A stretch of DNA of 21,363 bases from Planctomycetota bacterium (GTDB taxonomy: Bacteria > Planctomycetota > GCA-002687715 > DRQF01), in NCBI GenBank assembly GCA_036479435.1, contig JAZGFI010000062.1, positions 1 to 21,363 of the forward strand, written 5' to 3'. Shown here piece by piece: positions 271-18,005 of the stretch. A model generated the notes under the pieces. The model was not told the DNA's origin. It worked only from the letters and a program-made list of their open reading frames with translations, and did not search any database. The stretch's first letter is position 1, and the number at the start of each line of letters is the position of its first letter. The translations under genes and the position numbers were made by a program.

Positions 271-274
271 TTAG

Positions 275-347
275 CACGGGCAGAGGGACTCGAACCCCCA
301 ACCTGCTGATTTGGAATCAGCTGCTCTACCAATTGAGCCATGCCCGT
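275..347 (-). tRNA. trnW: tRNA-Trp (anticodon CCA), 3' CCA end not encoded
   Basis: Reverse complement folds as a cloverleaf: acceptor ACGGGCA/TGCCCGT, D arm GCTC-AATTGGTA-GAGC, anticodon arm GCTGA-TTCCAAA-TCAGC, T arm GGGGG-TTCGAGT-CCCTC, discriminator G, then CTAA. Confidence 0.97.
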
Positions 348-434: not shown

Positions 435-1226
435 TTAATGCGATTTCGGGGTTGGCTTGGAAGTTGGTGGTGCGGGTTTCGATGACTTGGGGGCGCCAAA
501 TTTCCATTTGCGATAACGAAAAGTGTGCCGGACCTTGCCCGCCCGGACGATGACGCGAGTCGGCACGGTCCAGCCCGCAAGGTGGACGTGGCTGATCTCG
601 CGGGCGCTCGTGCCGATGCCTGTCGCTGAGGAGGATTTCACCAACCACAAGTCGCCACGTTTTCGGTACTGGTAGCTCACTGCGAAAACCACCCGCCCCT
701 GCGCATCGCAGAGCGCCTGTTTTTGAAGACGGCCTTGCTCGTCGGCCGTGTACAGAGTCGAGCGAATGGGTGCTTTGAGATCTTGGCCCTTGGGGATTGA
801 GAAGCGTACCGAGTTGGGACTCTCCAGGCTTACATGGTGTGACTTTAAGAGGATCTCGGGATCGATGCCGACGGCGTCCGCCATAATCCGTTGCTGCAGC
901 GCGGGATTGATGGGAACGACCTTGCCGGACTTGTCCACCACGACGGTCTTGTCGGCCTTCCAATGGAAGAAAAAGGGGCCTGATGTCGTCACCTGACTCT
1001 CCTTGGGCCGTGCTTCGTCCAGCTGCTCGATGCTGACCTGAAACCGAACTTCCTTAAGACCCGCGATGCGTGGACGGTAGATGAGGCTTGAAAACTTCTT
1101 GAAAACGGCCAAGCCGCGCTCGTCTTGCTTGAGGGTGGGAGCCTTGGTGGTTTTGTCTTCGGCGCCTTTTTCCTGGGCACCAAGACTCAGGCACAGCAGC
1201 GAAACCAGGGCGATGGTCTTGATCAT
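435..1226 (-). CDS. Secreted/periplasmic hypothetical protein
   Basis: Start reassigned to ATG 1226 (GAAAGG upstream). Sec-type signal peptide MIKTIALVSLLCLSLGAQ, a beta-strand-rich basic body and a Pro/Lys/Ser-rich tail. No family recognised. Confidence 0.7.
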   Translation of the reverse strand: MIKTIALVSLLCLSLGAQEKGAEDKTTKAPTLKQDERGLAVFKKFSSLIYRPRIAGLKEVRFQVSIEQLDEARPKESQVTTSGPFFFHWKADKTVVVDKSGKVVPINPALQQRIMADAVGIDPEILLKSHHVSLESPNSVRFSIPKGQDLKAPIRSTLYTADEQGRLQKQALCDAQGRVVFAVSYQYRKRGDLWLVKSSSATGIGTSAREISHVHLAGWTVPTRVIVRAGKVRHTFRYRKWKFGAPKSSKPAPPTSKPTPKSH

Positions 1227-1347
1227 CGGGGGGCCTTTCGGGACATGCACGGCGAATGCGCATAGAGTGGCTTGCGATCAAAAGAGCGTAGCATCTTCGT
1301 TGCTTCTTCCCATGAAGACCGCCCTCGATGTTCCAGCAACGCTCGCT

Positions 1348-1381
1348 TGCTATACTTCGCCCATTCCCCACGCCGAGGAGG
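1348..1381 (+). promoter_or_regulatory. Extended -10 promoter element and RBS of the AhpD-like/kyn operon
   Basis: TGcTATACT at 1348-1356 (TGn plus a near-consensus -10). GAGGAGG at 1375-1381 precedes GTG 1386. Confidence 0.6.
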
Positions 1382-1385
1382 CCCT

Positions 1386-1967
1386 GTGAAGCCAAGTCCT
1401 GCCCTTTTTTACATTCGCACCGTTGACGAATCGGAAGCCCAAGGACCGCTGCAAGCGATCTATGCCGCGAGCCTGAAACGCGCCGGCAAGGTCTTCAACA
1501 TCGTGAAGATCATGAGCTTAAGGCCGCGGCAGATAACGGCCTCGATGAGCCTCTACGAAAACCTGATGCATGGCGATTCTGAACTGACGCGAACCGAGCG
1601 CGAGATGTTGGCGACCGTCGTCAGTCGGATCAACGAGTGCTTTTACTGAACCGAAGCCCACGCACGAGACCTCCGGTCGGAGGTCAAAGACGACCAAGCG
1701 GATTGGGTCGCAAAGATCAAAGAGAGTTTTGAGACCGCCGAACTCAGCCCGCGCCAACGTGCTCTCTGCGAATTCGCAAGAGATCTGACTATGGCGCCTC
1801 AAAAGATGAACGCAACGCGACTGGATCCGTTGCGCGACGTTGGCCTTAGCGATGCCGGTGTCTTGGACGCAACCCAAATCGTATCGTATTTTAACTACAT
1901 CAACCGCGTCGCCGATGCCCTCGGCGTTCCCCCGGAATCTGATTGGGATCTAAAGCATGACCTCTGA
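1386..1967 (+). CDS. AhpD-like / carboxymuconolactone decarboxylase (peroxidase-related) family protein, probable selenoprotein with CxxU (C85, U88), 193 aa
   Basis: GTG start with a strong RBS. ...LTRTEREMLATVVSRINECFY-TGA(1647-1649)-TEAHARDLR... continues in frame through ELSPRQRALCEFARDLT...LRDVGLSDAGVLDATQIVSYFNYINRVADALGV to TGA 1965-1967. Both halves match the AhpD-core peroxidase family, and the TGA sits at the second Cys of the CxxCxxxH motif. Confidence 0.9.
1668..1685 (+). promoter_or_regulatory. Putative bacterial SECIS element
   Basis: Perfect 7-bp stem GACCTCC/GGAGGTC with a G-initiated GGTC loop. 25 nt separate the in-frame UGA from the loop. Confidence 0.75.
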
Positions 1968-3174
1968 TACCAGCACACGCGAAAACCCAAAGCACGACCC
2001 TGGGCTGTTGGCTTGGCGCAAAGAGTTTCCAATCTTGGAAACCACGACCTACATGAACTCGAACTCGCTCGGCGCGATGCCCCGCGGCGTGCGCGACGAG
2101 ATGAACGACTATTGCGACCTCTGGGCGAAGCGCGGCGTCCGCGCTTGGCACGATCGCTGGATTGACTTGGTCGACGAAGTCGCGGACATTTACGCCGATG
2201 TTTTTGGTGCCTCACACGGCTCGGTGTCCATGCACCAAAACGTCGCGATCACCGAGTGGATCTTGCTCTCCGCATTCGACTTCTCCGGCCCGCGCAACAA
2301 AGTCGTTTACACGGACATGAATTTCCCGTCGGTCATGTACATCTACGAAGAGTACCGCCGCCACGGCGCCGTACTTGACGTGATCAAAAGCGACGACGGG
2401 CTCACGGTTGATCTCGACAAGATCCTCGACGCCATCGACGAAAAGACCTTGCTCGTACCCGTGTCTTTGGTGCTGTTTCGCAGCGCCTACATCCAAGACG
2501 CCAAAGCCATCATCGAAAAGGCTCATGCGGTCGGCGCCAAAGTCATCCTCGATGTCTACCAGGGCGCGGGCACCGTGCCGATCGACCTTACGGCCCTGAA
2601 CGTCGACTTCGCGGTCGGCGGCAGCGTCAAGTTTGTCTGCGGAGGGCCGGGAGCCGGGTATCTTTACGTCCGCCCCGATCTCGCCGACTCGCTGGAGCCA
2701 ACCTGCACCGGATGGTTTGCCCACCAGCGCCCCTTCGAGTTCGAAACCGGCAAGATCAAGTGGGCCGATGCGCGCCATCGCTTCAACAACGGCACTCCGC
2801 ACATCCCCGCCATCTACTCGGCGAAAACGGGGATCTCTTTGCTGAAGGAGATCGGCGTGAACCGCATTCGGCAAAACTCTTTGGCCCTCACCGACCGTTT
2901 GATCGCGCGCGGCAAAAAGTACGGATTTGATCTAACCGTTCCCATTTTGCACGCGCACCGCGGCGGCACCGTCGCCTTTGATGTGCCTCACGCCAAAAAA
3001 GTCACCGCCGAGCTTTTGGAACGCGACATCATCGTGGACTGGCGCCCGAACTGCGGCATTCGCGTTTCGCCCCACTACTACACGACTCCCGAAGAGTGCG
3101 ACTTCGCCGTGGATCAAATCAAAGAGATTCTCGACAGCGGAGCCTTCAAAAAACACGGCGACGACCTCTACTAG
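1957..3174 (+). CDS. kynU: Kynureninase-like class V PLP-dependent enzyme
   Basis: Motifs YMNSNSLGAMP, LDVYQGAG, GGSVKFVCGGPGAG (PLP Lys), GWFAH, GTP, RGG and DWRP..IRVSP. Adjacent to kynB. Confidence 0.78.
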   Translation: MTSDTSTRENPKHDPGLLAWRKEFPILETTTYMNSNSLGAMPRGVRDEMNDYCDLWAKRGVRAWHDRWIDLVDEVADIYADVFGASHGSVSMHQNVAITEWILLSAFDFSGPRNKVVYTDMNFPSVMYIYEEYRRHGAVLDVIKSDDGLTVDLDKILDAIDEKTLLVPVSLVLFRSAYIQDAKAIIEKAHAVGAKVILDVYQGAGTVPIDLTALNVDFAVGGSVKFVCGGPGAGYLYVRPDLADSLEPTCTGWFAHQRPFEFETGKIKWADARHRFNNGTPHIPAIYSAKTGISLLKEIGVNRIRQNSLALTDRLIARGKKYGFDLTVPILHAHRGGTVAFDVPHAKKVTAELLERDIIVDWRPNCGIRVSPHYYTTPEECDFAVDQIKEILDSGAFKKHGDDLY

Positions 3175-3175
3175 C

Positions 3176-3805
3176 ATGTCGGGGCGCATCATCGACATCT
3201 CTCAAGCCATAGGGCCCGAAACCGTGGTTTGGCCGGGCGACACGAAGTACTCACAAAAACGAGTGATGGAACTCGACAAATCCTGCCCCTGCAACGTCAC
3301 CACGATCACCATGAGTGTGCACTGCGGCACGCACGCCGATGCACCCCTGCACTACGACGCCGCGGGCTGCACGCCAGCCGAGATGGACTTAGCGCCCTTC
3401 ATCGGTCCTTGCCGCGTCATCGATGTGCAGTCAGACGACGCGATCTATCCGTCTGATTTCGACGACGTCGACCTCGGCCACATCAGACGCCTGATTTTCC
3501 GGACCAAAAGACCGAGCCCCGAAAAGACTTGGCGCGACGACTACGCCTACATGAGTCAAGAGGCGGCCACGGTCCTGGCGGCAGCCGGGGTGCTTTTGGT
3601 GGGGAGCGATGCCGCCAGCATGGATCCGATGACCAGCAAGACCTTGGATGCCCACAAGACCATGAATACCGCAGGGATTCGCTGGCTCGAAAACCTCGAC
3701 CTTTCTCGCGCCCCGGCCGGCGACTACGAACTGATCGCAGCCCCTTTGAAACTCAGCCACGCGGACGCCGCCCCGGTTCGCGCCCTGCTTAGGACCCTCT
3801 CATGA
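3176..3805 (+). CDS. kynB: Kynurenine formamidase (arylformamidase, cyclase family)
   Basis: Start reassigned to ATG 3176, 1 nt after the kynU stop. Motifs IIDISQ, VWPGD, HCGTHADAPLHY (HxGTHxDxPxH), SMDPMTSKTLDAH, LENLDL and ADAAPVRA. Confidence 0.9.
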   Translation: MSGRIIDISQAIGPETVVWPGDTKYSQKRVMELDKSCPCNVTTITMSVHCGTHADAPLHYDAAGCTPAEMDLAPFIGPCRVIDVQSDDAIYPSDFDDVDLGHIRRLIFRTKRPSPEKTWRDDYAYMSQEAATVLAAAGVLLVGSDAASMDPMTSKTLDAHKTMNTAGIRWLENLDLSRAPAGDYELIAAPLKLSHADAAPVRALLRTLS

Positions 3806-4221
3806 CCGACGCCAGAATCATCAATCCGAAAGAATGGCCCAAGCCCATCGGCTACTCAAATGGCGTTGTTGCCTCGGGGCCGATGCTCTACCTCGGCGGC
3901 CAGGTTGCCTTCGATACGAAGGGCGAGGTTGTCGGTGAAGGCGACTTGGTCCTTCAGTTTGAGCAAGTCATGAAGAACCTCCAGACGGTTTGTAAGGCCG
4001 GAGGGTCTTCGCTGAAGGATGTCGTCAAACTGACGATCTTCGTGCAAGACCGCGACGACTACAAAGCCAAGGGGCGCGAACTCGGTGCCGTCTATCGACA
4101 GTATTTTGGCCGGCACTATCCGGCGATGACGCTCGTCGAGGTCGCGCGTTTTTATGAGACAAAAGTCCTGATCGAGATCGAGGGCATCGCGGTCGCTGAC
4201 CGAAGTTGCGACAACGATTAG
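3802..4221 (+). CDS. RidA/YjgF/YER057c family enamine-imine deaminase
   Basis: Motifs PIGYSNGV, LYLGGQV, YFGRHYPAMTLVEV and LIEIEGIA. ATGA overlap with kynB. Confidence 0.92.
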   Translation: MTDARIINPKEWPKPIGYSNGVVASGPMLYLGGQVAFDTKGEVVGEGDLVLQFEQVMKNLQTVCKAGGSSLKDVVKLTIFVQDRDDYKAKGRELGAVYRQYFGRHYPAMTLVEVARFYETKVLIEIEGIAVADRSCDND

Positions 4222-4247: not shown

Positions 4248-6197
4248 CTATTTGATCTCGATCCGATGCTCACAGGCGGTGATTTCGGGAAGCGTCATCA
4301 CCCGCGGCTCACGCCCCTCGACGAAGATCAAGTAGGTATCGACCGTCGATACGAGACCGAAATGGTGGCGGCGGACACTATCAGGGTTCCGAGCGGCACC
4401 CGGAAAGTGACGCAGAACACCCACGACCGTACCGTCCGCCCCGCCATTCATCGCCACCACACACACCTGATTTTGGCTCAGATTTTTGGCTATTGCCAAC
4501 CTCAATTCAACAACGACCTTCAGTTCTTTGATGTTCGTCAAAGTCGGCTCAATCGTTCGCCTGATGACTTCATGGTTCGCCGCGTTGATCTGACGCTCGT
4601 CGATTCGGTGGCGCGGGGAAAAACTCCGCACGCGGTAGTTGCCGGTTTCGCCGAGAGGCACACTAAACTGAGGCCAGTTCTTGTCGACCTGTTCGCGGTA
4701 AACGTGTTCTCCAAATCCGCACACCCGATTCGAATCATCCAAGACCACGCAGGCGGAGTTGAGAGCGTTCCAACTTTGGGGGCTCATCACGCTCAGGTAC
4801 AGATAGGGCAACGACCAAGGTTGGCCCTCGGCCCCTTGGATGCGAAGTTTGCCCTCGTGAGCCTTCCAGATTTGGGCCAGCACTTGGCCGTCCCGCGCCG
4901 CATCGGTCGCCCGAAGATCGAGCGATCTCAGCGAAGAAGAATGCGCCAGGGCGCCTAGAGAAGAGCGATCCTCAAGGTGAATTCCCATCAGTCGCAACGA
5001 GCTCAGCTTTGGGAGACGCAAGATCGCCTCAAAGCTCGCCCGACCCAAACCGACACAGTTGTTCAGTGACAGCTCAGAAAGACCGGTCAGGCCGCCGAGC
5101 TGAGCCCACCCTTCGTCGTCGGGGCCGTCGACGTAAGTTAACCTCAAGGTCTGCAAGGACTCCAGGGAACGAAGAGCCGAAAGCGCCTCGCCTTGAATCG
5201 TCAAAGGTGTGAACCCGTCGCCACCTACTTCCAAGTGGCGCAAGTTTGGCGTCGCCGCCATGGCGGCGATGAGTTCGGTGCCGTCCTCGCTAGAGATGCC
5301 CCCACTGGCGAGGCGCCAAAGTGCCGCATGATTGGCGAGGGGCGCGAGATCGGCGGCTGAAAACCTCAAGTGGTTGAGGCCGAGGCTGCGCAAGTTTGGC
5401 AAGCCTTGGATGAGCGCCGAGATCGTGGGTCCGGAAGCTTGCGTCCCACTGATGTCGAGTGACATCAGCTGCCCCATGTTCAGCAGCTTGCGTAAGCCTT
5501 GGTCGCTGAGCTTGCTGCCCGGCATGACATACTCGGGCTCCTCTCCTTGGGCACCTTCGAATTGAATGGAGGCGGTCTGACCGACAAAGCCCGTAAGATC
5601 GAGCCTGCGAAGCTGAGGCAAGCGAGTGACAACCTCGAGCCCGGCATCCGTCATCACCGGGCATTGGGCCAAACTGAGATCAATGAGCCGCTCGAGTCTC
5701 GCCAGTGGCTCAAGGCCCCGATCTGTTACGTAGGAGCCACTCAGCACAAGGCTCTCAAGCTCAGGGCAACGATCGACAATCTGCTTCAGTTCCGGGTCGG
5801 CGAACTTCTGGCCGTAGACTCTCAGAAATTTCGTCGCCGGAGCTAGCCCCACGATCGCCGCGGGATTCCTCAAGTACACAGGTGGTGATAGCGTGCCGTC
5901 TTCTTCTCCTGAGTCAAAAGCGACATTCGTGGCCGCATTTTGATCCTCGTGAGCGGCCTCTTGGCCCCACCCGGACTCACGCCAGACAAAAGCACCGATC
6001 ACCAGCAGAACAACTGCCGCTGCAGCTAAACCCGACCAAGGGATGTTGCGTCGTGGAGACTTTTTCTCAACCGCTCTTGGCGCAGGTTGGCCCGGGCTCT
6101 CGCCACGAAGAGTCCAAGCCAGGGCCGCATCAATGAGTTTGTCGGCGGCGCGGTCTTGGGCATCGTCGGGCCGAGTGCTGTTTTTGTGCTCGTTCAT
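4248..6197 (-). CDS. Membrane-anchored leucine-rich repeat protein, putative anti-sigma factor (649 aa)
   Basis: Start reassigned to ATG 6197, 2 nt after the sigma stop. Short N-terminal region, one TM helix (WSGLAAAAVVLLVIGAFVW), many LxxLxLxxxxxTDxGL repeats and an unrecognised C-terminal domain. Confidence 0.78.
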   Translation of the reverse strand: MNEHKNSTRPDDAQDRAADKLIDAALAWTLRGESPGQPAPRAVEKKSPRRNIPWSGLAAAAVVLLVIGAFVWRESGWGQEAAHEDQNAATNVAFDSGEEDGTLSPPVYLRNPAAIVGLAPATKFLRVYGQKFADPELKQIVDRCPELESLVLSGSYVTDRGLEPLARLERLIDLSLAQCPVMTDAGLEVVTRLPQLRRLDLTGFVGQTASIQFEGAQGEEPEYVMPGSKLSDQGLRKLLNMGQLMSLDISGTQASGPTISALIQGLPNLRSLGLNHLRFSAADLAPLANHAALWRLASGGISSEDGTELIAAMAATPNLRHLEVGGDGFTPLTIQGEALSALRSLESLQTLRLTYVDGPDDEGWAQLGGLTGLSELSLNNCVGLGRASFEAILRLPKLSSLRLMGIHLEDRSSLGALAHSSSLRSLDLRATDAARDGQVLAQIWKAHEGKLRIQGAEGQPWSLPYLYLSVMSPQSWNALNSACVVLDDSNRVCGFGEHVYREQVDKNWPQFSVPLGETGNYRVRSFSPRHRIDERQINAANHEVIRRTIEPTLTNIKELKVVVELRLAIAKNLSQNQVCVVAMNGGADGTVVGVLRHFPGAARNPDSVRRHHFGLVSTVDTYLIFVEGREPRVMTLPEITACEHRIEIK

Positions 6198-6199
6198 GC

Positions 6200-6712
6200 T
6201 TAGAGGCTCCGTTCGAGGCAAACGCGGATAAGACCGCGCGCCCGTTGCAAGATCGTGGAGACGTTGGAGGTACTCAGGTCGAGGGTCTTCGCGATTTGAT
6301 GTTGGGGTTGGCCTTGGCGATAGAAAAGGTCGACCGCTTGGCTGGCTCGACCATCGAGTTTGCCGACGCATTCGCGAAGAGCCGCGAAGAGAGATTCAGG
6401 ATTGTCGTCGGGTACCAATCGGGTCCAGACGGCTTCGGCGGCATCCGTTTCGAGGATTTCTCGTCGGCGCGATTGCTGCCGGCGTTCGGATACAAAGTGG
6501 TTTTTGGCCGCGGCGCGAAGATAGGCGCTCAAGCCGTCCAAGGAGCGCGGCTTGGCCCGACCGTCAAGAATACGCAGGAAAACCTCGTGGACGAGGTCGT
6601 CTGCCTCAGCGGGGCTCGCCCCCAGGCTCCTGACAAAGAGCCAAACCCCTGGCCGCGCGTCGTCGAGACGTTTTGCCAGAACATCGCCGGTGATTTCTTT
6701 CATGGCTTGCAT
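6200..6712 (-). CDS. ECF-type RNA polymerase sigma-70 factor
   Basis: Region 2 (AEADDLVHEVFLR...SAYLRAAAKN) and region 4 (LRECVGKLDGRASQAVDLFY...IAKTLDLSTSNVSTILQRARGLIRVC). 170 aa. Confidence 0.92.
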   Translation of the reverse strand: MQAMKEITGDVLAKRLDDARPGVWLFVRSLGASPAEADDLVHEVFLRILDGRAKPRSLDGLSAYLRAAAKNHFVSERRQQSRRREILETDAAEAVWTRLVPDDNPESLFAALRECVGKLDGRASQAVDLFYRQGQPQHQIAKTLDLSTSNVSTILQRARGLIRVCLERSL

Positions 6713-6896: not shown

Positions 6897-7100
6897 TCAA
6901 AGGCCCTCGTCGTAGGGTTGCTCCCAGTCTATCCCGAGGTCGTTGATGATCTGCCACATGGCGGCGCTGGCGAACTGCAAGTTGGAGCTAACGCAGGGGG
7001 CGAGGTCGTCTTGTTGCCCCAGGGCTTTGAGGCGGCGATAAGTTTCGAGAATCTCAGTTTCGGTGGCGTCCAGCTCGCGCCCAATCAGATCTTTGGCCAT
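6897..7100 (-). CDS. Small acidic hypothetical protein (67 aa), last gene of the CoA-ligase operon
   Basis: ATG with AAAGGA RBS, 24 nt downstream of the ligase stop. Helical, protein-like composition. Confidence 0.75.
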   Translation of the reverse strand: MAKDLIGRELDATETEILETYRRLKALGQQDDLAPCVSSNLQFASAAMWQIINDLGIDWEQPYDEGL

Positions 7101-7124
7101 GGTCGGAATTCCTTTCGTCGTGGT

Positions 7125-8462
7125 TCAGGCTTTTGGACGGCTGTCGATGAGGCGCTTGGCCTTTAGCTCGAAACGCGGGAGTTCGCCCGTCGCGACCTCC
7201 TCGACGTTGATGCGCAGACCTTCGTGATTACGCTTGAGATCTTTGGCGAGGCTGGTGCCCAGGGCCGCCGCGTCGATACCGTGATTGGGCAGAAGCTCGT
7301 ACTTGACCGTGATCTCGTCGATGCCACTCTCAGTTCTCCACACGAGAATCTGGAACTCATCGATCTCGCGCGACTCGCGCACGATCGACTCAATCGCACG
7401 CGGGTAGACGTTGGTGCCGCGCACTAAAAGCATGTCGTCAGCGCGCCCCAAAATCCCGCCTTCGTAGAGGTCAAAGGTTCGCCCGCATGAACAGCGATCG
7501 TGCGGAACTTTCTTGACGAGATCGGTCGCGCGGTAACGAATGAGCGGGATCATCCCGCGGCCAAAACTTGTCACCACGCGCTCGCCCATTTCGTCGTAAC
7601 CCAGCGCTTCGTCGGTATCGGGATCGATCACTTCTTCGATGAAGTGGTCTTCAATGATGTGCGTGCCACCGGGTTGTTTTGCACACTCGAACATCATGAT
7701 GGTGCCGATCTCCGTCATCCCTGCGGTGTCGGCGCACTTGGCTCCCCACTTGTCTTCCAACAGGCGCTTGGTGGCGGGGATTGAACCGGCGGGTTCGCCG
7801 GAGACGATGAGTTTGTCTACCGCACTTCCCGGCAAGTCAATGCCCTGCTTCTCGGCTTCAAGCGCCATCCGCAGGGCATAGGTCGGAGTGGCACAAACCG
7901 TCGTGACGTCCATCTCGACGATCTGTCGCACACGGTTCTCGGTGGTCATGTTGCCGGATGGCAACACCAAGGACCCGATCTTTTCGCAGCAGTAATGGGC
8001 GCCCCAAAAGCCGATGAAACTGCCGTAGCTAAAGGCAAAAAACACCGTGTCAGTCGGCCGCACGCCAAAGGCCCAAAACCCGTAAGCCCAACACTCAGCG
8101 ATCCACTGCCAGTCTTTTTTGCCGTCCAAAACCCGCAGCGGTTGGCGACCACTGGTGCCGCTGGTGAGGTGATAACGAATCGCCCGGTCACGGGGTTGGC
8201 TGAGCATGTCACCAAAGATTGGTTTGGCCGCCTGGCTCTCCATCCATGCCTCACGTGTCATGAATGGCAGCCGGCGCAAGTCATCGAGCGACTTGATGTC
8301 TTCGGGGCCGACCTTGGCATCGTCGTAGAGTCTGCGATGAAAGGCGCTCTTGTCGTAGGCGTAAGCGACGAGGCGCTTCAACTTGGCAAGTTGCAAGGCC
8401 TTTAGGTCGTTACGAGAGAGCGTCTCGCATTTGGGGTTCCAATAGGGCTGGGGCTTAGCCAT
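7125..8462 (-). CDS. Phenylacetate-CoA ligase (PaaK) family aryl-CoA ligase
   Basis: Start reassigned to ATG 8462 (GAGGTG RBS). Motifs YWNPxxETLSR, TSGTSG P-loop, SGEPAGS, AGMTEIG, LIRYRATD, GRADDMLLVRGTNVYP and LPRFELKAKR. Confidence 0.9.
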   Translation of the reverse strand: MAKPQPYWNPKCETLSRNDLKALQLAKLKRLVAYAYDKSAFHRRLYDDAKVGPEDIKSLDDLRRLPFMTREAWMESQAAKPIFGDMLSQPRDRAIRYHLTSGTSGRQPLRVLDGKKDWQWIAECWAYGFWAFGVRPTDTVFFAFSYGSFIGFWGAHYCCEKIGSLVLPSGNMTTENRVRQIVEMDVTTVCATPTYALRMALEAEKQGIDLPGSAVDKLIVSGEPAGSIPATKRLLEDKWGAKCADTAGMTEIGTIMMFECAKQPGGTHIIEDHFIEEVIDPDTDEALGYDEMGERVVTSFGRGMIPLIRYRATDLVKKVPHDRCSCGRTFDLYEGGILGRADDMLLVRGTNVYPRAIESIVRESREIDEFQILVWRTESGIDEITVKYELLPNHGIDAAALGTSLAKDLKRNHEGLRINVEEVATGELPRFELKAKRLIDSRPKA

Positions 8463-8469
8463 GTCTAAA

Positions 8470-9651
8470 TCACCTCGAGTCCTGGTCATGACGAGTCTTG
8501 TCTTTACCGACGAGGTCCCGTGCAATGATGATGCGTTGGATGTTTGACGAGCCCTCGTAGATCTCAAGACCGACGATGTCTCTTAGATAGCGCTCAACGG
8601 GAAACTCGTTGTTGTAGCCGCGGCCGCCGTGCAACAAGACGGCCTGGTGACAGGCCTCGGCCGCAGCTTCCGTAGCAAAGAGCTTGGCCACCGAAACGCT
8701 GCGGGTCGCGGGGCGTCCCCTATCTTTGTCCCAAGCGGCCTTCCAGGTCAAGTAGCGGGCGGCCTCCAAGGAACAATGCATGTCCGTGAGGGTCTTTTGC
8801 ACCAACTGAAAGTCCCCGATGCGTTTTCCGAACTGCCGACGCTTCCGCGCGTAGTCAATGCAAGCGTCCATACAGGCCGCGTGAACGCCAACCGCGCCGG
8901 CCGCAACGCCAACTCGTCCGTGGTCGAGGGCGCTCATCGCAATTTCGAATCCCTGCCCCACTTCGCCCATGCGAAGGGAATCGGAGATCTCCAGATTTTC
9001 AAAACGAAAACGTGCGTGTACCGAACCCCGGTGGCCCAGTTCGGGCGCTTCCATTTTTTCGCGGACAAAGCCGGGAAAATCTGTCGGCAGCAAAAAACAG
9101 GTGATACCGCGGTGCTTTTGTTCGGGATCGGCCTGAGCGAAAAGCAAGGCGCAGTCGGCGACCGTGCCGTTGGTAATCCACATCTTGGAGCCGTTTAGGA
9201 CCCAAGCATCGCCTTTCCTCACCGCGCGCGACTTCATAGACGCAACGTCGCTGCCGGCGTCTTCCTCAGTAAGGCCGTAGCAGCCGATCGCCTCCGCCGA
9301 GCAGAGTTTCGGCAACCACTTCTCTTTTTGTTCGTCGCTGCCCCAATCTTGAATGCAGGAAGCGACGAGCCCGGTTTGCACGGCCATAAAGCCGCGAACC
9401 GAAGAGTCTACTTTTCCGAACTCCTCGTAGACCAAGGCCTGGGCGACGTGGTCGAGCCCCAAGCCACCGTAGGTTTTTTGGATGGGCCCACCGAGTAAGC
9501 CGCTCGCGCCAACGGCGCGGATAAGCTCAGGGTCAAACCGCCGCTCCTCATCAGAGGACTTTGCCTGCGGAGCGATGATGCGGGCGGCGACGTCACGGGC
9601 ACGGGCTCGGATTTCCTCGTGCTCTTTGGAGAGTTCAAAGTCGATCGGCAT
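8470..9651 (-). CDS. Acyl-CoA dehydrogenase
   Basis: Motifs GLTEEDAGSD, LNGSKMWITNG, RRQFGKRIGDFQLVQ, HGGRGY and IYEGSSNIQR. Confidence 0.96.
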   Translation of the reverse strand: MPIDFELSKEHEEIRARARDVAARIIAPQAKSSDEERRFDPELIRAVGASGLLGGPIQKTYGGLGLDHVAQALVYEEFGKVDSSVRGFMAVQTGLVASCIQDWGSDEQKEKWLPKLCSAEAIGCYGLTEEDAGSDVASMKSRAVRKGDAWVLNGSKMWITNGTVADCALLFAQADPEQKHRGITCFLLPTDFPGFVREKMEAPELGHRGSVHARFRFENLEISDSLRMGEVGQGFEIAMSALDHGRVGVAAGAVGVHAACMDACIDYARKRRQFGKRIGDFQLVQKTLTDMHCSLEAARYLTWKAAWDKDRGRPATRSVSVAKLFATEAAAEACHQAVLLHGGRGYNNEFPVERYLRDIVGLEIYEGSSNIQRIIIARDLVGKDKTRHDQDSR

Positions 9652-10451
9652 TACCTTCCCTCAAAGCGCGCGCTGCGCTTTTCGCGGAAAGAAGCCAAGA
9701 ACTCGCGATGATCATGGCCCATCAGCATCAAGGCCTGGGCCTGGGCTTCGGCCTCGATGGCGGAGCCGATCTCCATCGTCCACTCGGCGTTGATCATACG
9801 CTTCGTCATACGGATGGCGTAGCCCGGTCCCGCTTTCAAGCGGGCGGCGTATTCTGCCGCGGCAACCATGACTTCGTCCGCCGGAACAACTTTGTTGGCG
9901 AGCCCAATTTCCAGTGCTTTGGCCGCAGACACCGATTCACCGAGCATCAAGATCTCAGTAGCCCTGGCATTGCCAACCACCCGTGGCAACAAGAACGCCG
10001 CCCCCATGTCCGCCCCAGTAAGGCCGACTTTGGCAAACAAAAACGCGATCTTGGCCGCATCACAGAAAACGCGAAAGTCGGCGGCCAAGGCGATAACCGC
10101 TCCGGCTCCGGCCGCGATACCGTTGACCGCCGCGACAATGGGTTTGTCCAGCTCGCGCATGTTTTGAATCAGCTCGCCGGTCATGCGGGTGAAGTCGAGG
10201 ATTTCTTTCATGTCTCGGTTGACGAGATCGCCGATGATGTCTTCAACGTCACCACCGGAGCAAAAGCCGCGGCCGGTTCCGGTAATAACGATAACTTCGA
10301 CATCGTCGCGCTGGCGAAGGTCGTAGAAGCAATCGGTCAGTTCGCGGTAGACATCGAATGTCAAAGCGTTCAGCCGATCGGGACGGTTCAAGATGATGGT
10401 GGCGAGGCCTGATTCGACATCAAAAATGAATTGCTCGTAGGTTTTGCTCAT
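9651..10451 (-). CDS. Enoyl-CoA hydratase/isomerase family protein (type seen in anthraniloyl-CoA clusters)
   Basis: Start reassigned to ATG 10451. Motifs LNRPDRLNALTFDVY, FCSGGDVEDIIG and FLFAKVGLTGADMGAAFLLPRVVG. TAATG overlap with the ACAD gene. Confidence 0.92.
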   Translation of the reverse strand: MSKTYEQFIFDVESGLATIILNRPDRLNALTFDVYRELTDCFYDLRQRDDVEVIVITGTGRGFCSGGDVEDIIGDLVNRDMKEILDFTRMTGELIQNMRELDKPIVAAVNGIAAGAGAVIALAADFRVFCDAAKIAFLFAKVGLTGADMGAAFLLPRVVGNARATEILMLGESVSAAKALEIGLANKVVPADEVMVAAAEYAARLKAGPGYAIRMTKRMINAEWTMEIGSAIEAEAQAQALMLMGHDHREFLASFREKRSARFEGR

Positions 10452-10455
10452 GAGA

Positions 10456-11232
10456 TCAGGGTGCGACGGCACCGCCCGCGACGCCGAGGGCTTGGCCGGT
10501 CGTAGCTCCGGTATTGGGACCGAGAAAAGACATGACCGCCGCGGCAACTTCTTCGGGCGTGACCAGTCGCCCCAAGGGGCTGTCGGAGGCCAAAGCCGCG
10601 ATGGCCGCGTTGCGATCGCAGCCGGTCTTGTCCATGATATTCGCGAGAGTGCGTGCCGTCATGGGGGTGTCGACATATCCAGGACAAACGGAGTTGACAG
10701 TAACTCCAGATGCAGCCAATTCGACGGCCTGGGCTCGTGCGAACCCCAACAGGCCGTGCTTCGACGCGGTATAGGCCGCCGTATAGGCGTAGCCTTTTTG
10801 CGCCGCGGTTGAAGCGATGTTGACGATTCGGCCCCAGCCCGCTTCTTGCATGACCGACGCGGCCGCCCTCGAAAGCTGAATAGCCGCCCTGAGATTGAGC
10901 GTCATCGTGCGATTCCAAAGGTCATCGCTGCTGCGGTGCAAGGGCGCCGACTCCGCGAGTCCGGCGTTATTCACCAAGATGTCCAGACGGCCACATTCCG
11001 CGAGAATCTTGGGCACTAAGGCCGAGGTAGCCACGGCATCCGCAAGGTCGACCGTGAAGGTCAAGGGTCGAGTACCCGCCGCAGAAAGCTCCAAAGCCAG
11101 CTCGTCCAGGGCTTTTTTGTTTCGGGCAACTAAGATGGTTCTAGCGCCTTCAGCCTGTAGCCGGGCCGCAATAGCCGCTCCAATACCACGGCTGGCCCCG
11201 GTCACGAGGGCATGGCGATCAACAAGCTGCAC
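10456..11232 (-). CDS. Short-chain dehydrogenase/reductase (SDR)
   Basis: Start reassigned to GTG 11232 (GGAGGAGG RBS). Motifs TGASRGIG, LVNNAG, NIAS, YTASK (YxxxK) and VCPGYVDT. Confidence 0.94.
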   Translation of the reverse strand: MQLVDRHALVTGASRGIGAAIAARLQAEGARTILVARNKKALDELALELSAAGTRPLTFTVDLADAVATSALVPKILAECGRLDILVNNAGLAESAPLHRSSDDLWNRTMTLNLRAAIQLSRAAASVMQEAGWGRIVNIASTAAQKGYAYTAAYTASKHGLLGFARAQAVELAASGVTVNSVCPGYVDTPMTARTLANIMDKTGCDRNAAIAALASDSPLGRLVTPEEVAAAVMSFLGPNTGATTGQALGVAGGAVAP

Positions 11233-11552
11233 GCGGCCTCCTCCATTTTTCTTTCCTGCCAGGAGGAGACTATCTTTAGGGGGCCCCTTGGTAAAGATGG
11301 TGTAAAGTCTTACCATTTATTCGTTTAAGGACCCCTGCCTCAAATCGCGGCCTTGAGCAAAAAATAATTGTCAGGGAAATCGCCACCACAAGGGCCAGAT
11401 ATTGCGTTCACCAGGTGTGGGCAGAGCCACTCGTTGAGGTCAAGATCGTCGCAACTGGCGAAATAGTCAAAACTTCCGGCGGCGAGTTTTTCGGAATTTT
11501 TGCCATGCGAGAACCCTCAAAGAGTAGAACTTAGGCAGAGAGGGAGGAGAAT

Positions 11553-17336: not shown

Positions 17337-17735
17337 CTACATGATCGAAACGATCGGAATCTCCTCGTGCTGATCCAAACGGAGGAGGCGGGAGTGCTCA
17401 GTCGCGGCAATAGCGGTAGCACCATTTGCAACCGACATACGCAAGAGCGACGCCCGAGGATCAAAAGGCCCCGATGCGGGTCCCTCGTCGTCTTTGACGA
17501 CAATCGCGCAGTCGCGAACAAAGCGGCACACTTCGCGCGCTCCCGCTGGCGAAAAGCCCAGTCCGTCTTGAAGAACTTGGCTCAGCTCCAGCAACATGCT
17601 TTCGCAGGTCATGAGCTTGATGCTCTGTGATACTGCCATCTTGACCAGCTCTTCGGCGGGGCCGCCGTATAGCAGGCCCTCGATCCAAATGCCGGTGTCA
17701 ACGGCAATAAGCTCGGTTGAGGATTCTGTGCTCAT
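17337..17735 (-). CDS. PIN-domain protein (VapC-like/TIGR00305 type), degenerate active site
   Basis: IAVDTGIWIEGLLYGGP...MLLELSQVL...FDPRASLL...NGATAIAATEHSRLL follows the PIN layout. It lies directly downstream of an RHH gene. Confidence 0.72.
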   Translation of the reverse strand: MSTESSTELIAVDTGIWIEGLLYGGPAEELVKMAVSQSIKLMTCESMLLELSQVLQDGLGFSPAGAREVCRFVRDCAIVVKDDEGPASGPFDPRASLLRMSVANGATAIAATEHSRLLRLDQHEEIPIVSIM

Positions 17736-17762
17736 GCGCGATGAAGTTCCTGGTGGCCGGAT

Positions 17763-18005
17763 TTAGACCGCGATCTCTTCGATGATTTTCTCGACGTCGA
17801 TGTGGCCCGTGCCTGCGGCCGAGCCCTTGGCGGCGCTGTACTCGCGCAGCGCGTGCCAGCGCCGCATCTTCAAGTACTGACGAAGCGCTTCACGATAAAG
17901 CTCACTGCGGTTGCGATGCTCGTGGTCGCATACCTGGTCAAGCTCTTGAACGAGTTTCAAGGGAATCGAAACGCTGACGATTTTGATGTCCTGAGCCATC
18001 CTCAC
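17763..18005 (-). CDS. CopG/ribbon-helix-helix DNA-binding protein (antitoxin-like)
   Basis: IVSVSIPLKLVQELDQVCDHEHRNRSELYREALRQYL is an RHH signature. Start is GTG 18005 (GGAG RBS) or ATG 17999. Confidence 0.88.
   Translation of the reverse strand: MRMAQDIKIVSVSIPLKLVQELDQVCDHEHRNRSELYREALRQYLKMRRWHALREYSAAKGSAAGTGHIDVEKIIEEIAV

Follow-up and report, generated by a model that had tools for sequence, protein, structure and literature searches.

A predicted AhpD-like selenoprotein gene ahead of kynU-kynB-rid in a Planctomycetota genome: probably an inherited gene order

Why does the gene of a putative selenoprotein stand directly ahead of genes for tryptophan breakdown, and could selenium supply thereby control that pathway? 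The question is raised by a stretch of 21,363 nucleotides (nt) from a Planctomycetota bacterium (assembly GCA_036479435.1, contig JAZGFI010000062.1), here called the window; the genome that holds it is labelled G000, and other genomes, contigs and loci are labelled Gxxx, Cxxx and Lxxx. On the forward strand, an AhpD-like gene read through an in-frame UGA (1386..1967) is followed by genes for a kynureninase-like enzyme (kynU, 1957..3174), a kynurenine formamidase (kynB, 3176..3805) and a Rid-family protein (rid, 3802..4221). Judged from comparative sequence analysis, the AhpD-like protein is probably a general thiol/peroxide redox selenoprotein that precedes kynU-kynB-rid because a gene order has been inherited within one order of Planctomycetota, and not because of a role in tryptophan breakdown.

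The AhpD-like open reading frame (ORF) extends from a GTG start at 1386 to a terminal TGA at 1965-1967 and encodes 193 amino acids (TIGR01926, PF02627). The in-frame UGA (1647..1649, forward strand) is codon 88 and falls on the second Cys of the CxxC motif, giving C85-F-Y-U88. With the UGA read as Cys, the protein scored 162.1 bits against TIGR01926 (cut-off 81.8). The family profile matched solved peroxidase-related proteins over their full length, with the CxxC aligned to C85/U88; the best of them was PDB 6k40 (E 7e-48, CxxC-x3-H aligned), which we take to be the AhpD-like protein DR1765 of Deinococcus radiodurans. TGA was present at the position of codon 88 in 30 of 30 loci (61 genomes searched) and likewise in 95 of 95 matches of more than 38% identity among 100 further loci from several phyla, and the protein halves on both sides of the UGA were conserved in homologues. 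selA was detected in all 36 genomes with a UGA-bearing homologue; it was absent from G041, in which the best homologue lacks a stop. The selenocysteine (Sec) machinery of G000 is complete, with tRNA-Sec (selC), selA, selB and a UGA-containing selD.

A hairpin of the selenocysteine insertion sequence (SECIS) type, GACCUCC-GGUC-GGAGGUC, was located at 1668..1685 (forward strand, 7 base pairs); its loop contains a G and begins 25 nt past the UGA. Its pairing was assessed in 113 distinct homologous sequences, which are related to each other, using the register taken from the window. The mean was 5.07 of 7 pairs compared to 4.19 ± 0.09 under synonymous recoding (maximum 4.48 in 1000 recodings), and 6 or more pairs were kept in 55 of the sequences (null maximum 33). 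The window hairpin by itself is unremarkable (shuffle z -0.52; p 0.055 under synonymous recoding), and this would agree with a UGA that is a genuine stop or an assembly error in a split gene or pseudogene. Such an explanation is scarcely credible in view of the TGA kept at the same codon in several phyla, the conservation of both halves, the presence of selA in every carrier and the lack of any variant at this site in contigs from sequencing runs. Contigs of runs X3 and X5, which come from one sample and may be the source of the window DNA, matched the stretch with its UGA exactly, and the codon was covered and unchanged in run X6. The UGA very likely encodes selenocysteine, and the gene has all sequence features of the read-through selenoprotein described in the initial annotation. 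Annotation pipelines will split the gene at this codon.

The NF041238 'CFYUT' family was rejected for the AhpD-like protein despite the shared motif (86.5 versus 175 bits, with a match to positions 152-337 of 357 only). A second AhpD-like gene with an in-frame UGA (C-H-Y-U, 32% identity to that of the window) is located on contig C201 of G000 (8654-9196, forward strand), and two such genes also occur in several relatives. In five Gaiellales-type loci (L120, L129, L138, L159 and L163), a gene for a GTPase with a SelB-like start comes after the AhpD-like Sec gene.

Gene order was compared in a set of 23 Planctomycetota genomes of the order, of which 20 carry the selenoprotein gene and 20 carry kynU, with 19 carrying both. 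The arrangement ahpD-sirB1-kynU was found on a single contig in 11 of the 19 and across contig breaks in three (G006 and G011, with sirB1 split, and G007, in which the join is not shown). kynA was considered as the intervening gene and rejected; the gene encodes a SirB1/Transglut_core2 protein, identified by PF13369 in five of five intervening proteins scanned and by tblastn for the remainder. In two genomes (G009, G018), ahpD is divergent from sirB1-kynU-kynB. In two others (G001 and G005, the latter joined by a 145-nt exact contig overlap), ahpD lies directly before kynU with a 103-nt spacer that holds TATCGT and a ribosome-binding site (RBS) of kynU itself of -9.5 kcal/mol. An ahpD/kynU overlap was present only in G000 (1 of 19). 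In G004 (88% complete), sirB1-kynU-kynB-rid is located in the middle of a contig and no ahpD orthologue was found. The HEAT-repeat SirB1/Transglut_core2 gene (L070 6138-6992 in G004, and equivalents) immediately precedes kynU in most genomes of the order, and in G004, G006 and G007 it is preceded by TAGGAT or TACAAT 6-7 nt before the ATG, suggesting leaderless transcripts.

A search for PF13369 gave no match in G000 (92% complete) and matches elsewhere in the genome in G001 and G005. A kynU tree of 25 sequences placed G000 as sister to G003 (100/99) and apart from G001/G005. Since G003 keeps sirB1, a lineage-specific loss of sirB1 would be the simplest origin of the overlap in G000. The AhpD tree was poorly resolved (6 of 22 branches starred), too little for an assessment of congruence with the kynU tree.

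Two synteny baselines were used. In 10 of 20 genomes of the order, a PaaK-like ligase gene was found no more than 10 kb from kynU, and an unrelated pair of tetratricopeptide-repeat (TPR) and 3HCDH genes was adjacent in 9 of 9 genomes of the family. Because these genes are syntenic too, the region appears to have been inherited as a block. Inherited order is further supported by the paralogue on C201, which has no kyn neighbours.

Outside the order, 283 other Planctomycetota genomes were surveyed; the AhpD gene was present in 88, a kynU orthologue in 87 and both in 56. Among these 56, the two genes were within 10 kb of each other once (G077, 5.3 kb, with other genes between) and at 16 kb once; they were 0.8-2.2 Mb apart on one contig in three and on different contigs in 51. 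Across other contigs, a single-protein query gave no relative, and an alignment query gave at least 583 loci. The best 80 of these included three members of the order and G077, and the other 76 had no kyn, rid or sirB1 match in flanks of up to 6 kb; recurring AhpD neighbours among the best 80 were restricted to lineage groups. The neighbourhood survey that had been proposed for ahpD with kynU/kynB thus found a linkage conserved within the order and nearly absent outside it, with the overlap in one of the 19 genomes.

Several observations weigh against inherited order as the full explanation. The AhpD gene is at most about 1.5 kb from kynU in all 16 genomes of the order in which the two genes share a contig or sit on contig ends with an exact overlap, and the other three are compatible with the same closeness. 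Neither an inversion (G009, G018) nor the removal of sirB1 on two occasions separated it from kynU, and its link to kynU is tighter than that of the PaaK-like ligase gene. Outside the order, AhpD and kynU co-occur above expectation (56 of 88, odds ratio 9.3), a figure confounded by kinship, and in these fragmented assemblies a different contig does not always mean a great distance. Furthermore, KynU scored 146.6 bits against TIGR01814, below the cut-off of 246.4.

The retention and co-occurrence would be accounted for if the Sec enzyme were a functional partner of the pathway, as had been suggested initially. It would guard against peroxides of O2-dependent tryptophan/anthranilate breakdown or act on an intermediate, and selection would keep it by kynUB in the order; one example, by analogy with the AhpD-fold debrominase Bmp8, would be reductive dehalogenation of halogenated tryptophan catabolites. 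The closeness kept across the order through rearrangement, the phylum-wide co-occurrence and a weak profile match to Bmp8 (E 1.4e-5) are in line with this proposal. However, G004 has kynUB without an AhpD gene, and in 55 of the 56 outside-order genomes with both genes these are not within 10 kb on one contig. The O2-using steps (kynA and a PRK08255-like enzyme) are encoded outside the operon, whereas KynB and KynU are hydrolases, and peroxidase-related proteins fit the profile far better than Bmp8 (E 7e-48 to 2e-35). A partnership of this kind is considered distinctly unlikely.

According to the preferred explanation, inherited order, SelB would read the SECIS hairpin and Sec would be inserted at position 88. 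The C85/U88 pair, together with His92, would then reduce either peroxides or the oxidised thiols of its partners, the activity that DR1765, a homologue with Cys, seems to have. The ancestral order was probably ahpD(U)-sirB1-kynU-kynB-rid inside a larger aromatic/acyl-coenzyme A (CoA) catabolic cluster, and the loss of sirB1 in G000 would have brought the end of the AhpD gene up against the start of kynU, giving the 11-nt overlap. Tryptophan is predicted to be converted to anthranilate and alanine by KynA (unlinked), KynB and KynU, and anthranilate would be processed further via a CoA route (PRK08255-like enzyme on C170; genes at 7125-11316 of the window). A selenium effect on kyn expression in G000, if any, would be incidental polarity.

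Whether read-through could control the downstream genes depends on the expression signals of the locus. An extended -10 promoter-like motif, TGCTATACT (1348..1356, forward strand, predicted from sequence), is located 29 nt ahead of the AhpD-like start; the motif class has 138 occurrences genome-wide, i.e., 0.013 per kb per strand. The relative G003 has TGGTATACT at a comparable position. A TTGACA/TATAAT scan gave no forward-strand promoter at the locus, and a promoter/terminator scan gave nothing above shuffles. The AhpD-like start has a strong RBS, the Shine-Dalgarno sequence GAGGAGG (1375..1381, forward strand; anti-Shine-Dalgarno duplex -11.8 kcal/mol). kynU starts with ATG at 1957, sharing 11 nt with the end of the AhpD-like ORF, and its TAG ends at 3174. 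The gap to kynB is one base (3175), kynB runs from ATG at 3176 to a TGA ending at 3805, and the kynB/rid junction is an ATGA overlap, with rid from 3802. Overlaps are ordinary in this genome: by a crude count of ORFs, 34% of 1303 close pairs in the same direction overlap. The four genes have the appearance of a single operon in G000. The coordinates, the overlaps and the extended -10 motif of the initial annotation were all borne out on re-reading of the sequence, and its single operon is supported for G000. Its further statement that kynU has no clear RBS held in part: the anti-Shine-Dalgarno duplexes of kynU, kynB and rid (-4.0, -3.5 and -3.9 kcal/mol) compare with a median of -5.3 for 836 reference starts, and the kynU site, though not strong, beats about 38% of these and is within the normal range.

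Read-through of the UGA had also been proposed as a selenium gate of the operon. The arrangements in relatives do not support a designed gate: ahpD overlaps kynU in one of 19 genomes, sirB1 stands between them in 14, ahpD is divergent in two, kynU has its own RBS in two, and G004 is without ahpD. The strong form of the idea, in which UGA read-through is a conserved, evolved selenium sensor and a selected control point of the tryptophan-catabolic operon, would be favoured by the upstream, co-directional position of ahpD(U) in 17 of the 19 genomes (three across contig breaks). Conserved stop/start coupling, the mark of a recoding-gated operon, was not found in these 17 junctions. In two of them (G000 and G003), ahpD clearly runs into the next gene, and in four an overlap is ambiguous, hence possible; the remaining 11 offer no in-frame start that overlaps the stop of AhpD, with likely gaps of 45-336 nt. 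The next gene has a strong RBS of its own in four cases, and a -10-like hexamer occurs in eight of the spacers (a raw count without background control). Together with the two divergent genomes and the one lacking ahpD, these arrangements largely refute an evolved sensor, which appears highly improbable. As the tight overlap is peculiar to G000, a built-in selenium switch is unlikely.

Gating may instead be incidental to G000. Without sirB1 and its spacer, kynU-kynB-rid would rely on transcription from the ahpD promoter and on translation running up to 1967, and selenium shortage would lower kyn expression via Rho-dependent polarity or lost coupling. The 11-nt overlap and the weak kynU RBS are consistent with this, as are the absence of any remaining -10-like spacer in G000, the distance of 307 nt from the UGA to the kynU start and the presence of rho, for which two matches above the TIGR00767 cut-off were obtained (C267 21509-22747 and C147 4647-5747). 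A precedent was found in fdhF(Sec) of Treponema primitia, in which failed reading of the UGA cuts the transcript downstream of the Sec codon (PMC3892789). The study describes no such selenium-dependent polarity for fdhF of Escherichia coli (PMC3892789), which speaks against the effect. So do the rank of the kynU RBS among the reference starts, four in-frame restart codons after the UGA (each with a weak RBS), a post-UGA stretch that is not notably C-rich (C/G 1.11) and the lack of conservation of the arrangement. Incidental gating is rated as rather unlikely; it would be compatible with inherited order, as a by-product and not a conserved device. The combined proposal, in which the selenoenzyme is a working part of tryptophan/anthranilate catabolism in the order (a dedicated peroxide reductase or a Sec-dependent reductive dehalogenase) and selenium supply gates kynU-kynB-rid in G000 via UGA read-through after sirB1 loss, is very doubtful.

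The downstream genes were re-assigned individually. The kynU product, a predicted pyridoxal 5'-phosphate (PLP) enzyme of 405 amino acids (PF22580, PF00266), had its best solved match in the Pseudomonas fluorescens-type kynureninase 1qz9 (E 1.5e-43). It keeps W64, F129, D201, K227, W256, T282 and R375 (P. fluorescens numbering), residues with active-site roles in that enzyme, and differs at three further active-site positions by the substitutions D132>V, H204>Q and Y226>V, which are the same in most of 25 orthologue matches. Assignment as kynureninase is supported by context, because kynB adjoins in G000 and kynA stands immediately upstream of the kynU orthologue in five genomes outside the order (G039, G045, G047, G049 and G055). 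KynU appears to represent a widespread atypical kynureninase subtype below the TIGR01814 cut-off, the gene of which lies between kynA and kynB in other genomes; its loci are window 1957-3174 and L038-L066. The possibility that this enzyme supplies the selenoprotein as a cysteine desulfurase or Sec lyase was rejected, since kynureninases match far better (E 1.5e-43 versus 3e-17) and the SclA score is 48.7 against a cut-off of 525.

KynB (arylformamidase, 209 amino acids, forward strand) passed the TIGR03035 equivalog cut-off (231.8 versus 223.05 bits) and matched PDB 4cob (E 1.4e-46). The fourth gene product (139 amino acids, PF01042) had been called RidA; this was revised, since Met occupies the column of the catalytic Arg of RidA (PAM replaces PAR) and the score against TIGR00004 is below the cut-off (90.3 versus 106.25 bits). 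This Arg is Arg105/107, and Rid4-7 proteins are reported not to hydrolyse imines (PMC4433059). The protein was placed with the Rid4-7 type because of the missing catalytic Arg.

The absence of kynA from the operon had been stressed as unusual. kynA is indeed not in the window; its absence there is unremarkable, as the recommended search elsewhere in the genome located it on contig C153, an arrangement as in Pseudomonas aeruginosa. It was found in 22 of the 23 genomes of the order and on a separate contig from kynU in 19 of the 19 that have both. A PRK08255-like monooxygenase/reductase flavoenzyme is encoded on C170 (1074.3 bits, just under the cut-off of 1078), and CoA-ligase and beta-oxidation genes are located at 7125-11316 of the window. 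The flavoenzyme and these nearby genes suggest that anthranilate is removed through a CoA route.

The surroundings of the four genes were annotated as follows. On the reverse strand at 6897-11316, genes for a short-chain dehydrogenase/reductase (SDR), a PRK08258-type enoyl-CoA hydratase, an acyl-CoA dehydrogenase, a PaaK-like CoA ligase and a 67-amino-acid ORF form a cluster convergent on the kyn genes; it is near kyn genes in many Planctomycetota and is a candidate for an anthraniloyl-CoA route. Between the kyn genes and this cluster, at 4248-6712 (reverse strand), an extracytoplasmic function (ECF) sigma factor gene is followed by one for a membrane-anchored leucine-rich-repeat protein, likely an anti-sigma pair; in G001, the CoA ligase gene follows less than about 0.7 kb after rid. 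Genes for a ribbon-helix-helix (RHH) antitoxin-like protein and a PIN-domain protein at 17337-18005 (reverse strand) are likely a VapBC-type pair. Upstream, a protein of 271 amino acids with a signal-peptide-like start is encoded divergently at 435-1250 (reverse strand) and is present in seven loci of the family. A tRNA-Trp gene lies at 274-347 (reverse strand), divergent from the operon; a scan of 19 relative loci showed it nearby in 8. This tRNA gene, 1 kb upstream, was considered as a tryptophan-regulatory link and set aside in view of its opposite strand, its position behind another gene and its occurrence in these 8 of 19 loci.

Few bacterial selenoproteins from the environment are commoner than the AhpD-like CxxU proteins, which are orphans as to pathway. 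If true, a functional tie to tryptophan catabolism would be the first pathway assignment for this very common orphan family, and control by selenium of a pathway that does not itself involve selenium would be new. Since the linkage is specific to one uncultured order and the coupling to G000 only, both make a weak lead. Side results are the kynureninase subtype below the standard hidden Markov model (HMM) cut-off and the 'RidA' without catalytic Arg. No paper tying AhpD or a selenoprotein to kynureninase or tryptophan catabolism, and nothing on kynU, kynB or kynA with Planctomycetes, was found in the open-access literature, a search that left subscription papers mostly aside and covered no supplements.

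Compared with known systems, the AhpD-like gene belongs to a described selenoprotein family (TIGR01926/COG2128, 'AhpD-like 1'), with which it shares the HMM, the CxxU motif and a bacterial SECIS-type hairpin. An 'AhpD-like protein, TIGR01926, CxxU' is already catalogued as a selenoprotein (PMC13188914), and a survey of GOS data contains 299 sequences of 'AhpD-like 1' (PMC2398784). The kynurenine-operon context differs from anything found for the family in the open-access literature searched, in which the order-specific kyn neighbourhood did not appear. DR1765 is alike in the CxxC-x3-H alignment and differs in having Cys where the G000 protein has Sec. In the consulted part of the report, a DR1765 mutant is sensitive to H2O2, the CxxC matters and no kyn link is mentioned (PMC8945050).

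The kynBU operon of P. aeruginosa (KynR regulon) resembles the present locus in keeping kynB and kynU together and kynA apart; in P. aeruginosa the first two are co-transcribed and kynA has a separate promoter (PMC8707732, PMC12451312). Here, the order is kynU-kynB, no Lrp-type regulator is adjacent, KynU is atypical and a selenoprotein gene is located upstream. The 2-aminobenzoyl-CoA (anthranilate) pathway is known in outline (PMC4539516, PMC3534580). The version in Azoarcus evansii is similar in its PRK08255-like flavoenzyme and in the CoA ligase, acyl-CoA dehydrogenase, enoyl-CoA hydratase and SDR genes, which are near the kyn genes here; the flavoenzyme is encoded on another contig in G000, and the nearby ligase is PaaK-like. 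PRK08255/PRK08258 and Rid genes are reportedly linked to the A. evansii cluster.

The initial annotation knew of no described system like this one. That holds only in part: the kyn linkage was not found in open-access print, whereas selenium-dependent polarity as such is known from T. primitia fdhF (PMC3892789). The likeness is that failure of UGA read-through could lower the downstream transcript. The difference is that the effect in T. primitia is within the selenoprotein gene itself, whereas here it would concern downstream genes of another pathway.

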